In this document: piece after piece, positions 9,001-18,000 of the stretch
Position numbering within the stretch: the first letter of the stretch is position 1
How the letters are laid out: every line of letters starts with the position of its first letter
Source of the DNA: Escherichia coli
GTDB taxonomy: Bacteria; Pseudomonadota; Gammaproteobacteria; Enterobacterales; Enterobacteriaceae
DNA: 64,000 nucleotides
Direction: 5' to 3' (one strand)
Assembly: GCF_045037415.1 (NCBI RefSeq)
Contig: NZ_CP173438.1
Program-made: the position numbers

Positions 9001-12000
9001 CAGCCTCCTCAGTATGCCTGAGTCCAGGCAGGTAAACCGGGGAAGGTCAGCGACGGATGTTAAGGGGGCATGGCTCCGATGACGCGCTGGCTGGCGGAGC
9101 TTCCGTAGTAGTCCGCGATGGGGAAAGCCCATTACATGGCGAAGGGAAGCAGTTTGAATGTGTTTGCGACGTGAATTAACTGACCTAACGAGGTGAAGAC
9201 CTTTGATAATCAGCGAAATGCAACGCAAGCTTGCCACATGGGCAGTCACCGATCCGTCCCTACGGATTCAACGGCTGCTGCGTCTGATAACACAACCAGA
9301 ATGGCTGGCTGAAGCGGCGCGGATCACGCTTTCATCAAAGGGGGCCCATACCCCCGGCGTTGATGGCGTGAACAAAACAATGCTACAGGCCAGACTGGCT
9401 GTTGAGCTGCAAATCCTCAGGGATGAATTACTCTCAGGCCACTACCAGCCCTTGCCCGCCAGACGGGTTTACATCCCTAAAAGCAACGGCAAACTGCGAC
9501 CACTGGGTATCCCCGCGTTGCGGGATCGTATTGTTCAGCGGGCCATGCTGATGGCGATGGAGCCGATATGGGAGAGTGATTTTCATACGCTCTCATATGG
9601 CTTCCGGCCTGAGCGCAGTGTCCACCACGCGATCCGCACGGTGAAATTACAGCTCACAGACTGTGGTGAAACCCGGGGACGCTGGGTGATTGAAGGCGAC
9701 CTGTCCAGTTACTTCGACACCGTACATCATCGACTGCTGATGAAGGCTGTACGCCGCAGGATCAGTGACGCACGTTTCATGACTCTGCTGTGGAAAACCA
9801 TCAAGGCGGGACATATCGATGTCGGTCTCTTTCGGGCGGCCAGTGAAGGTGTGCCACAGGGCGGTGTTATATCGCCGCTATTATCGAACATCATGCTGAA
9901 TGAGTTCGATCAATACCTGCATGAGCGCTACCTGAGCGGGAAAGCCAGAAAAGATCGGTGGTACTGGAATAACAGTATCCAACGGGGCCGAAGTACGGCG
10001 GTCAGAGAAAACTGGCAGTGGAAACCCGCGGTGGCGTACTGCCGCTATGCCGATGATTTTGTCCTCATCGTCAAAGGCACCAAAGCACAGGCGGAAGCCA
10101 TCAGGGAGGAGTGTCGGGGTGTGCTCGAAGGCAGTCTGAAACTCAGGCTGAACATGGATAAGACTAAAATCACCCATGTTAATGACGGCTTTATCTTTCT
10201 GGGGCACAGGATCATTCGCAAACGCAGTCGTTATGGCGAGATGCGAGTGGTTCAACGATCCCGCAGGAGAAAGCCAGAAACTTCGCCGCATCGCTGACAG
10301 CACTGTTATCAGGCAACTACAGTGAAAGCAAAGTCGATATGGCTGAACAACTCAACCGAAAACTGAAAGGCTGGGCCATGTTCTATCAGTTCGTTGATTT
10401 TAAGGCCAAAGTCTTCAGTTATATCGACCGTGTCGTGTTCTGGAAGCTGGCTCACTGGCTGGCCCGCAAATACCGTACAGGTATCGCTTCCCTGATGAGG
10501 TGGTGGTGTAAATCACCGAAACCGGGTCAGAGCAAAACGTGGGTTTTATTTGGTAAAACCAATCACGGCAAGCTCAGCGGCGAAATACTGTACCGGTTGG
10601 TGGGGCAAGGCAAGAAGCTGTTCCGCTGGCGGCTACCCGAAGGTAATCCCTATCTGAGGACGGAGACCAGAAACACGTATACATCGCGCTTTACAGAAGT
10701 GGCAATGGCGTTCGCCAGCATTTAAATGGAGAGCCGGATGCGCTGAAAGGTGCACGTCCGGTTCGGGGAGGAGAGGCAGGGAAATAGTCCGACTACGCCC
10801 TGCCTCTTACTCTACTCCGCACCTGGCAGGGTTGGCTGTATCTGGCGGTGGTTATCGATCTTTTTGCCCGTAATGTGGTGGGCTGGTCGATGAAACCAAC
10901 GCTGTCGCGCGAGCTGGCACTGGATGCGCTGCTGATGGCAGTCTGGCGGCGTAAGCCTGCAGAAAACGTCATAGTGCACAGCGATCAGGGCAGTCAGTAT
11001 GGCAGTGATGACTGGCAGCGGTTCTGCAGGGCCAACAATCTGGCGCCGAGTATGAGCCGTCGTGGCAACTGCTGGGATAATGCGGTGGCAGAATCGTTCT
11101 TCAGTTCACTGAAAAAAGAGCGCATCAGAAAGCGGATATATAAAACCCGGGACATGGCCCGGGCGGATATCTTCGATTACATTGAAGTGTTCTACAACCG
11201 GACCCGGCGCCACAGTCATCTGGGTGGCGTCAGCCCGGAGGCCTTCGAAAAGGCCTCACCGTGAGGACAGAAACTGTCTACCGGAATGTGGTCACTCCAC
11301 TTGAGTCGTCTTGCTGTACTCCTTTGGCCAATCCATTTAGCTCTCCAACGTGATGTTTTCAACGGTAACAAAAGTAACAATATAACATGCAGTCATTTCA
11401 ACGATCTCAGTGTTACCACCCATTTTGAGCAATCATATCAAAGTAACAAAAGGGGAATATTGTGTGGTTCATCGCTGAAAGCAGGCTAAGATCACCTGCC
11501 GGCTATGCATATCATGAAAGTGCTAAATGTCCCGTCTTGTTTATCAACCGAGATAAGCTGTAATTGACTGAGTGGCTCCCCTTAATGCTTTTTCTCAATC
11601 AACAGATATGGATGGGACCAGTCAGTGACCTCTTTATATGAAAAAAACCCATCGTGCTCCAGTGCGCAAACGCCCTTATGACTGGCAACGTAATCGTAAA
11701 CAGCCCGGCTTTCCAGTCCCTGTAACATGTGCGAAAGCAGCTTTCGGCGCATCACATCTGACTTCCTGCGTTTACTGTCAACAACGGGTAATAAAGTGAT
11801 CCACTAACCGTCACCACCAACGGTTTAATATTGATCCACCTTGTTTACTCAGGATTAGCTTCAGGTATAACCCCGGCCTTTCGTTTCTACTTCAGTCGAT
11901 AGCTCTCTCCTTTTATCTGGACTACGTGTGAGTGATGTAAGATACGGTCCAGCATCGCCGATGTCAGGGCTGCATCCCTGGCGAACGTCTGATCCCACTG

Positions 12001-15000: not shown

Positions 15001-18000
15001 GCGGGCCAGCTTCGGAATGGCCATAGCTGACGATGAACCGCCTCATGAACGAGAAAGATGAGCAGGCCCCCCGCGGCCATCATCAGGCCGGAGCCCCACG
15101 CCGCCATGCCCCATGGCAGATCTTGCGCAAACCAGAATAGCTCCGCCGCCAGCGCGAGCAGAATCATCCAGAAGAGTGAAAGGTGCGCCAGTCTGGAGAG
15201 GCGCGGCGGCAACGTCTCAGCATCACGCCAGAGCAATGCCCCCGCAGCGGGTAACGCCAGACACCAGGCCAGATTCTGCCAGCCCGCAGCAAAAATCTCA
15301 TGTTGTGAAATTTGAGACAGCAGCATCACCAGCATCGTCGGCCACAGCAACCATTTGCTGACATCCAGCTCCCACCAGGCCAGACGACCAGAGACAATCC
15401 GCCAGCCCCAGACCGATATCGCCATTAACGCCAGCACGCCAGACAGCACCAGCGAGTCCTTTTTCAGCACCAGTTGCGATGCCCCAATGAGCGCGATTAT
15501 CCAGAAGATCAAACCGCCAGCCAACAGAACCCAACTACCCTGCAACTGAATATTGCGCCACAGCCAGGCGGCAGCCAGCCAGCTGAGGCTGAGTACGGCA
15601 AAGATTAGCACCAGAGAAAGCGCGCTCATCCCGTTCATCTGCGCCCACAGCGCGCTGCACACTGCCAGCACCAGCAGCGCAGTGCCGCTATAGCTCATAC
15701 GCCGCTGCTGCTGTTGCACGCCCAGCCAGAGGATGCCGAGACCTTCCAGCGCCCAGGCCATCGCCGTCCAGCGGGCCGAAAGCGCCAGTGGGATAGCGAG
15801 CGTGGTAAATGCCCCACCCAGCGCCAGCGCCGCCAGCACCAGCGGCCTCCCCAAAGAGGGATAGCGACGCAATGCAAGCCATGCTAACGCCAGATAGAAA
15901 CCGCCGTAACCCAGCGCGCTAAGCGCCGGACCATATTCCATATGCCGGGTTATGGCGTACTGCATGCCAAAACCGACCAGCGGCGATGCAAACAACAGCA
16001 CGCCATCAATAATCTGCTTACCTTTCTCCTGTGCTCGTAGCGATAGCGCCACGCTCAGCACACCAAAAATGATCGTATTGGCTATCAGGAAAAGCTGACT
16101 GCTCAGGTAATACTCTGATCGATAGCCGTCGAGTCCCCAAAGACCGCCGATACCAAAGGTAAATAACAGGCCAAGCAGATTAAGCTCGCGCCAGTGTTGC
16201 CAGATGCTGATGGCGAGAATACCGACGGAAAGCAGAAGGTAGAAAGAGAAGAGCGCCACATGACTACCGCCGCCGGTGGAAAGCAACAGCGGTGCCAGAT
16301 AGCCACCGATACTTGCCAGCATCGCGAGGCTGAGCGCTTTTTGCATAATCGCCAGTCCCACGCTCGCCGCGCAAATCGCCACCAGTAATGCAAACGCCAG
16401 CGTCATCGGCAGCATCTGCCAGAGCCAGAATGCGCCAAAAACGGTGAGATAGAGCGTCCCCGTAGCTCCACCCTGTATGATCAGCGCATAAACCAGCTGT
16501 TTATGCCGCAATCGCCAGCCCACTACCAGCAGGGCAATCGCAAACAGCGAAGTCGCCACCAGACGTAGCTCAAGCGGGAACAGGGAGTGTTCAACCGTAT
16601 AACGCAGCAGGAAGGAGAAGCCAAGGAAGAGAAGCAGAATACCCAGCTTTGCCAGCGGGTTGCCCTGCATAAACCAGCGCACCAGGGACGACATCACCCC
16701 ACCAAAAGCGGAAGATTGTTCGACCGCTGGTGTGGGTAGCGCCTCGTTTTGCGGCTTCGGTTGTGGACGCCAGGGGTCAACGGACTCAGGCGTGACATCA
16801 GCCACAGGCTCCGACAGCACGATGTTAACCGCAGGCGAAGACGTTTCAACAGGCACAACCATCTGCGAAACACTCTGCGGCACAGTTGTTACCACTGTGG
16901 CGGGTGCTTCAGTCACACCGCGCTGCTCAAGCACCTCCACCCGGCGACGCAGGGTCGCCAGCTCAGAACGAACAGCCGTGCTGCGGCTGAGCGCGATAAT
17001 CGCGAGGATGGGAACCACCACCAGTGCGAAGAATAAAGCAATGCAGCCAAGGGTTAGCAGCTCATCCATGTTTCCACCGTCGCGGTATAAAGATGGGTCA
17101 GAATGACACAAACTGTTGTATTTGTGCCATATGCATTAGCAAAGCGAGCCGCTTTTTCAGAAAATACCATCAACCTCTGCACGCAGGCAGAAACTGTAAA
17201 ATGCGATTAAAACGCAAAGCACGAACAACCGGGCATTCGTGACCAGAATGTATCTCTGTTTACTTTAAGTGATGAGGTTTTGGATCTACGCACTACTCTT
17301 CCGCTTCTGAGGCATTGCTGCAGCTCTTTTTTTAAAGCTCCCCGGGTTGGTATAAAAAGCGTTTTATAAATCATTTCATGTGACACATGCATTTCCTGAT
17401 TATCGGGATAACAGCGTTTTAGCCAACCGCCAATTTGTTCCGGCGACCAGTCCTGATGCATCTTCTCTGCAATGATTTTACACAATGTGGGGCTTTCAAT
17501 TAGCTTGCAAGGTTTTGGTCTCAGAGCATTTTCCCACGCAGCAGGATCGGCTTTTGCTGCACGGTATTGTTTTGCACCGCCGTGCCTCCTGATCTCGCGG
17601 CTAATCGTTGAGGGAGCTATTGATAATTTAGCAGCGATGTCCCTGATGATGCGTTTTGCTACCAGTCCTCTGGATATCTCCTCTTTTTCATCAAGCGAAA
17701 ACGCTAACCGGTGCCGCTTTCGCACGGGAGGACGGTAGCCACCGGCCTGGTGGATTGTAGGCATGATAGTAGAGTGAAATCTGTCGAACATTCTGGGGGA
17801 TATCATGCAGGGAATCACCTTGCTTATATCTGTCCCAAATAATCACCTTTTGCTCTGGCGTGTAGTTAATACGAGTTCTTCGTTTCATGGCAACGTCCCC
17901 CTTGATTAGGGACAGCGTTGCATCGACCCGTTGAACTCACAGCTCAAAGCGGACATGGATCACTTACTGGATATGCACATCGTTCCAATGCGCATATCCC

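Follow-up and report, generated by a model that had tools for sequence, protein, structure and literature searches.

The DNA considered here, hereafter the window, is a stretch of 64,000 nucleotides (nt) of the Escherichia coli chromosome (contig NZ_CP173438.1) that holds an integrase-bearing island of about 28.6 kb between ychF and dhaR. Our subject is a block of 6166 bp in this island (11776-17941), situated at one backbone site on the border of the conserved island core and the variable cargo. From left to right, it comprises the right end of an IS21-family insertion sequence (IS), a 94-bp IS91-family piece, 671 bp of orphan DNA, a 4255-bp captured chromosomal segment and the left end of an IS30-family element. 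The captured segment carries a pair of genes that, by domain content and gene order, encode homologues of Arc3A and Arc3B, the products of antagonism resistance cluster 3 of Pseudomonas aeruginosa. The features of the block are as follows (aa, amino acids; G+C, guanine plus cytosine):

11776-12242, minus strand: IS21-family (ISSen3-like, 92%) remnant, delimited by DNA alignment to intact ISSen3
12243-12336, minus strand: IS91-family internal fragment, 94 bp, 80-89% nt identity to IS91-family transposase genes
12337-13007: orphan AT-rich DNA, 671 bp, 38.5% G+C
13008-17262, minus strand: captured chromosomal segment, 4255 bp, 56.4% G+C
13020-14415, minus strand: arc3B homologue (DUF3999), pseudogene
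14412-17069, minus strand: arc3A homologue (DUF2339), intact, 885 aa
17070-17206, minus strand: native upstream intergenic region, kept with the cargo
17207-17262, minus strand: 3' end of an amidohydrolase-like gene, 18 codons and a stop, fused in frame to the IS30 transposase stump
17263-17941, minus strand: IS30-family (ISCfr4-like, 91-92%) remnant, delimited by alignment to intact ISCfr4

Arc3A and Arc3B homologues

The larger of the two captured genes encodes a protein that matches the Pfam family PF10101 (DUF2339) with an E value of 9.7e-157 (524 bits against a cut-off of 33.6), and the adjacent gene matches PF13163 (DUF3999; E value 1.5e-96). PF10101 with an adjacent PF13163 is the combination by which Ting et al. 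recognized homologues of PA5114 and PA5113 of P. aeruginosa, the genes arc3A and arc3B (Ting et al. 2022, eLife, PMC8926400). Arc3A is a huge polytopic DUF2339 protein that prevents the build-up of lysophospholipids and acts as the chief cellular protection against Tle3, a phospholipase delivered by a type VI secretion system (T6SS); Arc3B, the DUF3999 protein, binds Arc3A, and its loss caused no detectable defect in pairwise competition (PMC8926400). Homologues, including that of Citrobacter rodentium, were tested for complementation of a P. aeruginosa delta-arc3A strain, four of which restored defence significantly, and these heterologous Arc3A proteins did so on their own (PMC8926400). Protection by arc3A against other T6SS lipases has since been confirmed independently (Nat Commun 2025, PMC12663445).

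The E. coli DUF2339 protein aligns to the Arc3A orthologue of P. aeruginosa PA7 with 41% identity over 381 aa (E value 6e-71). This orthologue was located via the published PA5114 deletion-primer sequence, and it also matches PF10101. Full-length alignments give 86% identity to the Citrobacter protein, 85% to that of Kluyvera and 75% to that of C. rodentium, the last of which we assume to be the same homologue as the one tested by Ting et al. A crude Kyte-Doolittle scan detects about 20 or more separate hydrophobic segments in the 885-aa protein. Searches of NCBIfam and of the PDB sequences gave no result for DUF2339 or DUF3999. On the strength of their domains, order and alignments, the cargo proteins are Arc3A/Arc3B homologues, and, by homology, arc3A may serve E. 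coli in defence against T6SS phospholipases.

The start codon of arc3B (ATG, 14415-14413) overlaps the arc3A stop. Relative to Citrobacter, a base has been added to arc3B somewhere in 14277-14293; the resulting +1 frameshift, after about codon 43, cuts the signal peptide frame (MKWMKAVL..., MKWMKAVLCSVLL...) off from the protein body. A hydrophobicity scan finds the C-terminal transmembrane helix in place, and no single frame joins the export/lipidation signal to it. The NCBI Prokaryotic Genome Annotation Pipeline (PGAP) also flags the gene as frameshifted. The first-pass annotation of this DNA had described 13020-17069 as a GC-rich operon of two membrane-protein genes unlike its surroundings; GC-rich and foreign it is, but it does not hold two intact genes, as the DUF3999 gene is frameshifted in every copy. 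An intact arc3A beside a dead arc3B fits the findings in P. aeruginosa, because Arc3A homologues work there on their own and loss of Arc3B caused no detectable defect in pairwise competition.

Origin of the captured segment

With its 56.4% G+C, the captured segment stands out from most neighbouring pieces (38.5-51%) and from the island as a whole (47.9%). A blastn comparison with the chromosome of Citrobacter amalonaticus returns a single alignment, spanning 13013-17167 of the window at 84.4% identity over 4162 columns. The gene order there is malZ, DUF2339, DUF3999, an ahpC-like gene, acpH and queA, and the same arrangement is found in Enterobacter. The Kluyvera locus is 81.4% identical to the captured segment at the nucleotide level and has an amidohydrolase gene upstream instead of malZ. 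Positions 17207-17262 of the window encode ...DTFWSRMPGCSCFAF, and the Kluyvera amidohydrolase ends in ...DRAFWGALGCSCFSF. Because this tail matches the upstream gene of Kluyvera, we take the captured piece to be 13008-17262, from a Kluyvera-type context; the same 56 nt had previously been counted as part of the IS30 transposase. Compared in this way, the operon is foreign to E. coli and of Kluyvera/Citrobacter-like chromosomal origin. Among 72,556 plasmid records, DUF2339 occurs in 16, nearly all of which are chromids or mislabelled chromosomes.

About 40-60 nt upstream of the arc3A start, the retained upstream region has an inverted repeat, CACAAA-N8-TTTGTG (17107-17126), which is conserved across E. 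coli, Citrobacter, Kluyvera and Enterobacter and is probably a binding site for a regulator. At the other side of the amidohydrolase tail, the transposase gene of the IS30 remnant breaks off internally (at about nt 625) and is fused directly and in frame to the donor DNA. This joint is a product of illegitimate recombination or deletion, not of transposition.

Remnants of three IS families

In the IS21-family remnant, the open reading frame (ORF) 11887-12138 matches PF01695 (IstB_IS21; E value 8.9e-38, profile positions 152-233 of 238). What is left of the element is its right terminus (TGTCAACAACGGG...), facing outward (leftward), and the last 356 nt of istB, which stops abruptly; istA, the left end and half of istB are missing. 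The remnant also lacks 3 bp, and where ISSen3 has CAG, it reads an in-frame TAG (12178-12180, minus strand). An IstB fragment with a premature TAG and no istA was what the first-pass annotation had reported, and both the profile match and the ISSen3 alignment bear this out; its extent had been drawn too far, to 12310, as homology to ISSen3 stops at 12242.

At exactly this point the IS91-family fragment begins. It corresponds to about nt 60-153 of the transposase gene, the zinc-binding N-terminal region, with neither IS end present; in an Erwinia IS91 copy, the matching part starts 59 nt inside the gene start. PGAP calls the fragment a pseudogene too. This third relic and the 671 bp of orphan DNA, both between the bracketing remnants, had been missed earlier. 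The plasmid collection gave no match to the orphan DNA except the same E. coli sequence.

The IS30-family remnant consists of the left terminal repeat (...GTTGAACTCACA), facing outward (rightward), and, of a transposase gene of 1161 nt, the first ~625 nt (~54%). One extra G in the run 17795-17799 shifts the frame, a profile search matched only the helix-turn-helix domains HTH_38 and HTH_32, with no DDE domain, and the right end is missing; the earlier description of a frameshifted transposase lacking its DDE domain is thus correct. We considered an end of this IS at about 17955, where similar bases lie beside an intact ISCfr4, and rejected it. The end is placed at 17941, because the 13 bases GCTCAAAGCGGAC that follow also occur in two related E. 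coli islands (contigs L005 and L006) that have no IS30 there.

None of the three IS scraps is able to transpose, because there is no complete transposase and each retains one end or none. That both bracketing pieces are dead remnants had been proposed before, and alignment to intact ISSen3 and ISCfr4 has now mapped their truncations to 12242 and 17263. With one end each, neither the IS21 nor the IS30 remnant can show a target-site duplication. Taken by itself, such IS debris is ordinary genome archaeology.

A palindromic insertion site

The left flank of the block reads ...TGACTTCCTGCGTTTAC and its right flank GCTCAAAGCGGACATGGATCAC, and two parts of the island backbone border it directly:

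11758-11775: left half of a palindrome and ribosome-binding region
17942-17960: right half of the palindrome (GCTCAAAGCGGAC...)

An uninterrupted counterpart is present in E. coli 2015C-4136CT1 (L006, 13950-13990), where it reads TGACTTCCGCTCTTCACTCATAGCGGAAATGGATCAC; its two 7-bp arms, TTCCGCT and AGCGGAA, form a hairpin. In E. coli FDAARGOS_1285 (L005, 12231-13990), an IS1182 element with the target duplication CGCTC lies within the same 5 bp. A related Klebsiella island is identical to the left flank of the window up to the IS21 terminus (GTAAACGCAGGAAGTCAGATGTGATG, minus strand). In different island variants, IS30-, IS21- and IS1182-family elements have thus taken the palindrome within about 5 bp, which makes it a hot spot of at least three IS families. 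An intact ISCfr4 on a Klebsiella plasmid (L003) is flanked by similar symmetric sequence (GTCCGCTTTTCGC before the IS and GCTCATAGCGGAC after it), which suggests that the element prefers such targets. The IS30 family favours palindromic hot spots. The island variants together offer a clean natural example of one palindromic site struck by three IS families.

The island and its distribution

Strain SA186, which is 99.97% identical to the window across the first 30.1 kb, served as annotation reference. In its annotation, core genes from hemA to ychF extend to about 6358, followed by a tyrosine integrase and the accessory DNA, and the island ends before dhaR at about 35000. Related islands are present, at 80-95% identity, in 87 genomes of other E. 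coli lineages and, also at ychF, in Klebsiella; Proteus has a related core module, with ychF adjacency not seen on that contig. Their common core has two genes of 465 and 284 aa, a regulator of the AlpA type, a second integrase, RadC and DUF2787; the stretch separating it from the ychF-side integrase differs from island to island. In 2015C-4136CT1, this variable region encodes a protein kinase, an FRG-domain protein and a 1278-aa protein; FDAARGOS_1285 has a DEAD/DEAH helicase of 1589 aa and an AAA ATPase there, Klebsiella has large helicase and HTH genes, and Proteus an ABC-three-component-like set. In the window the variable region spans 7799-17941 and includes the whole of the block. At the far end of the island (~29000-35000), SA186 is annotated with a reverse transcriptase/endonuclease of the retron Ec67 type and an ABC-three-component system; this end is very AT-rich (32.5-40% G+C at 32-35 kb). 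A literature search for a ychF island in ST131 found no relevant published description.

A 7.1-kb query covering the block and its surroundings (11000-18100) was compared with 5426 complete E. coli genomes. It matched 506 of them (~9%) with at least 99% identity over at least 80% of its length, including strains labelled O25b:H4-ST131 (such as EC958) as well as JJ1887, SA186 and ZH193; our statement on ST131 covers those of the 506 carriers that bear a lineage name. All 506 have the island in essentially the same form. A sensitive blastn search with arc3A returned the same 506 genomes only, each with a single copy of at least 99% identity. An 86-nt probe over the arc3B frameshift was 100% identical in the matches listed and at least 99% identical in all 506 operon-bearing genomes. 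This distribution points to one arc3 acquisition followed by clonal inheritance. The comparison with related genomes that had been recommended at the outset is in this way informative, with the cargo restricted to 506 E. coli genomes and the homologous locus found in Citrobacter and Kluyvera.

How the block may have arisen and what arc3A may do

We consider it quite probable that the block is a 6.2-kb patchwork at one island site, in which a captured Kluyvera/Citrobacter-like arc3 segment lies amid dead IS ends, with arc3A possibly functional. In such a history, an ISCfr4-like IS30 element and an ISSen3-like IS21 element would have inserted at the palindrome, only a few bases apart. The inner parts of both would later have been lost, leaving the outward-facing termini, between which the IS91 scrap, the orphan DNA and the 4255-bp segment would have come to lie. 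If arc3A is active, its very large polytopic product would sit in the inner membrane and keep lysophospholipids low when a neighbouring cell injects a phospholipase A toxin by type VI secretion, as in Pseudomonas, and arc3B would be dispensable in E. coli, as it nearly is in P. aeruginosa. The first-pass annotation had suggested cargo delivered or trapped by IS activity and later decay. Dead remnants, a foreign operon, decay and a variable island region are all present; delivery by the bracketing pair is the part that is not supported. IS-mediated delivery of the cargo is no more than plausible.

Several observations count against this reading. The order of IS insertions, deletions and capture cannot be reconstructed, and the homology of the left flank to the left half of the palindrome is short (about 17 nt). 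A simple promoter scan of the retained upstream region found no sigma-70-like site, and the same scan placed two hairpin-plus-T sites just upstream. Similarity to P. aeruginosa Arc3A at the BLAST level covers residues 95-456 only, in the N-terminal DUF2339 core; the C-terminal halves cannot be aligned, which is to be expected in a family whose helix numbers vary. PADLOC had no match for DUF2339, DUF3999, the small ORFs of the region, or the 465-aa and 284-aa core proteins. In three E. coli contigs (L008, L009 and L015), arc3A has a 168-bp in-frame deletion (window 15679-15831) that leaves 827-829 aa, with flanking alignments that overlap by 15 nt, and single strains encode truncated proteins of 660-754 aa. 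An intact 885-codon ORF is not evidence of selection here, because the 506 copies form a clonal set with identities of 99% or more. Together, a dead arc3B and deleted or truncated arc3A alleles fit slow decay as well as they fit function.

These points feed into a possible but doubtful alternative, in which the whole block is decaying junk and arc3A is silent or useless in E. coli, hitchhiking on clonal expansion and heading for loss. Such an account would draw on the arc3B frameshift, which is fixed in all 506 genomes, on the shortened arc3A variants, on copies so similar that there has been too little time for selection to show, on the result of the promoter scan, and on the fact that every neighbour inside the block is a dead remnant. 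Yet arc3A is full or nearly full length in 505 of the 506 genomes, with one at 90% coverage, and the later IS insertions of sublineages (ISEc23, IS1) landed in the neighbouring element ISEc24 or in AT-rich DNA, sparing arc3A. The native upstream region has been kept with its conserved inverted repeat, and Arc3A homologues are functional in foreign hosts and when their own Arc3B is missing.

As to the mode of arrival, the two bracketing IS could have delivered the operon as a composite-transposon-like unit that decayed afterwards. The intact outward termini of both remnants, the position of the block at one site and the foreign cargo would suit this, but the two belong to different families with unrelated transposases that cannot pair. 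No target-site duplication surrounds the block either (GTTTAC on one side, GCTCAA on the other), so the check proposed earlier gives a negative answer for the block as a whole. All inner joints of the block are non-transpositional: the IS30 joint is an internal break at about nt 625 fused to a donor gene tail, and the IS21 joint abuts an internal IS91 scrap. We regard delivery by the pair as improbable, and the same low probability attaches to capture of the operon by an IS91-family element that transposed, one-ended and by rolling circle, into a resident IS21 copy. IS91-type elements can mobilise adjacent DNA, and the IS91-family fragment sits precisely at the IS21 truncation (12243), between IS21 and the cargo. 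It is, however, an internal piece of 94 bp that lacks both IS91 ends, and hence any terminus or GTTC/CTTG-type junction, and 671 bp of unrelated orphan DNA separate it from the cargo. That the truncations and frameshifts are assembly or sequencing errors hiding intact IS copies is a notion to which we give practically no credence, having found no evidence in its support. The same sequence occurs in hundreds of independently finished genomes, including EC958, JJ1887, SA186 and ZH193, and PGAP independently flags the same pseudogenes. Because the sequence is shared by 506 such genomes, the arc3B frameshift is not an assembly artefact; the same evidence refutes the idea that full-length IS copies lie at these positions, which the first-pass annotation had named as the finding that would overturn it.

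Returning to the patchwork with a captured arc3 segment, its most far-reaching version holds that arc3A works as a defence, gained by horizontal transfer, against phospholipase toxins of rival bacteria, and rides as cargo in the kind of slot that in related islands is taken by anti-phage systems. We hold this version to be unlikely, if worth stating. Were it true, resistance to interbacterial antagonism would travel on a defence island, and would be specific among E. coli to the 506 island-bearing genomes (those named ST131 included), where it could aid the success of a clone in the crowded gut. An active arc3A would connect the expansion of a pandemic clone with its resistance to competing bacteria, and would imply that cargo slots of islands can swap anti-phage and anti-bacterial defences. 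Few non-immunity defences against the phospholipases of type VI secretion are known. Arc3A is one of them, and the cargo described here is a member of this known family in an unusual mobile setting.

Neighbouring features

The remaining features of the region lie to the left of the block, in its orphan DNA and to its right, where the island core resumes:

7801-11299, plus strand: ISEc24 (IS3 family), terminal repeats TGGAGTG..., split by a group II intron
about 8545-10815: group II intron (Rfam Intron_gpII at 10729-10815)
9217-10725: ltrA of the intron
11300-11581: spacer, 44% G+C together with the small ORF that follows
11582-11755, minus strand: conserved small ORF, 57 codons from GTG, 56 from ATG
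12340-12543, minus strand: predicted small two-helix membrane ORF in the orphan DNA
12696-12833, plus strand: 45-aa ORF annotated by PGAP in the orphan DNA
12717-12896, minus strand: predicted small two-helix membrane ORF in the orphan DNA
18066-19463: 465-aa island core gene
20040-20894: 284-aa island core gene

ISEc24 lacks a target-site duplication, with TTC at its left border and CTT at its right. Since it ends at 11299, the left edge of 11265 originally set for the region of interest falls inside it. ZH193 and the E. coli contigs L008 and L009 have the same ISEc24 copy without the intron, which is therefore a sublineage-specific insertion. The reverse-transcriptase gene of the intron has a 1-nt deletion at about 10252 compared with SA186, which leaves the ORFs 9203-10297 and 10339-10725; of the eight single-nucleotide differences between the window and SA186 over 30 kb, six lie inside the intron.

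The small ORF at 11582-11755 is left unannotated by PGAP. The first-pass annotation had noted it as a 56-aa minus-strand ORF in the spacer; the ORF exists, and it is not incidental spacer. An AGGAAG ribosome-binding site precedes its ATG (~11762-11767), and it has 42 database relatives, all of them short (44-103 aa), in Klebsiella, Salmonella, Pantoea, Proteus, Providencia, Serratia and others. In Klebsiella, the copy is found in a ychF island, immediately downstream of the 284-aa core gene, and is 93% identical at the protein level, with eight synonymous and four non-synonymous differences; in the Proteus copy, the protein has been kept through many third-position changes. Most likely, the ORF is a real small gene of the island backbone that the block has parted from the core and its upstream DNA, and automatic annotation skips it. 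Its 33% identity to the product of the 465-aa gene (E value 4e-6 in a pairwise comparison) suggested at first a paralogue of that gene reduced to a C-terminal stump; this reading was dropped, because a database search returned only short homologues, from many genera, and the substitutions are of the coding type. The spacer at 11300-11581 is not homologous to the related islands examined.

A 45-nt repeat of 80% identity links the small ORF (11650-11694) with 17978-18020, which lies just downstream of the 465-aa gene, beside the palindrome. The 465-aa protein itself resembles the small ORF at its C-terminus (18066-18200), with 33% identity and a shared motif, VC.L.HDG. Both likenesses may be traces of repeated replacement of the 3' end of the 465-aa gene. 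PGAP calls this gene at only 381 aa. Neither the 465-aa nor the 284-aa core protein matched Pfam or PADLOC, the small ORFs gave no Pfam match either, and NCBIfam, searched with the 465-aa protein only, gave no match to it. In the orphan DNA, the 67-aa product of 12340-12543, the one ORF of this DNA that was searched, has no relatives beyond near-identical (83-100%) copies of this E. coli lineage. On the core chromosome, and unrelated to the arc3 block, the C0299 small RNA (Rfam RF00119, 111.9 bits) lies at 63149-63227.

Comparison with known systems

Set against annotated copies, the scraps are 91-92% (ISCfr4), 92% (ISSen3) and 80-89% (IS91 family) identical at the nucleotide level, and the terminal repeats of the IS30 and IS21 remnants are recognisable. 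A complete IS21-family element has istA, istB and two terminal inverted repeats, and a complete IS30-family element has a DDE transposase and two terminal inverted repeats; the remnants fall short of both. Likewise, the block differs from a composite transposon, which is bounded by the same IS, or by compatible ends, and by an outer target-site duplication.

The island resembles its ychF-adjacent relatives in having an integrase beside ychF, a conserved core and variable cargo. Unlike those relatives, it has no recognisable anti-phage genes in the slot next to the integrase, which is occupied instead by IS debris and arc3A/B.

In comparison with the Citrobacter, Kluyvera and Enterobacter locus by ahpC-acpH-queA, the segment is collinear over both genes and the upstream region with the inverted repeat; identity to Citrobacter and Kluyvera is 81-84% at the nucleotide and 85-86% at the amino acid level (75% to C. 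rodentium). In those genera, the genes form a fixed chromosomal locus and both are intact, whereas E. coli has a 4.25-kb excerpt in an island, with the second gene broken.

From P. aeruginosa, the E. coli pair differs in the size of Arc3A (885 aa, compared with more than 978 aa in Pseudomonas), in the frameshift of arc3B, and in being island cargo rather than occupying an ancestral chromosomal place. The E. coli pair is not known to be under Gac/Rsm-type regulation or to give a phenotype. In both, an adjacent DUF3999 gene follows the DUF2339 gene, the start codon of the former overlapping the stop codon of the latter, and a very large polytopic membrane protein is paired with a DUF3999 partner that has a C-terminal membrane helix.

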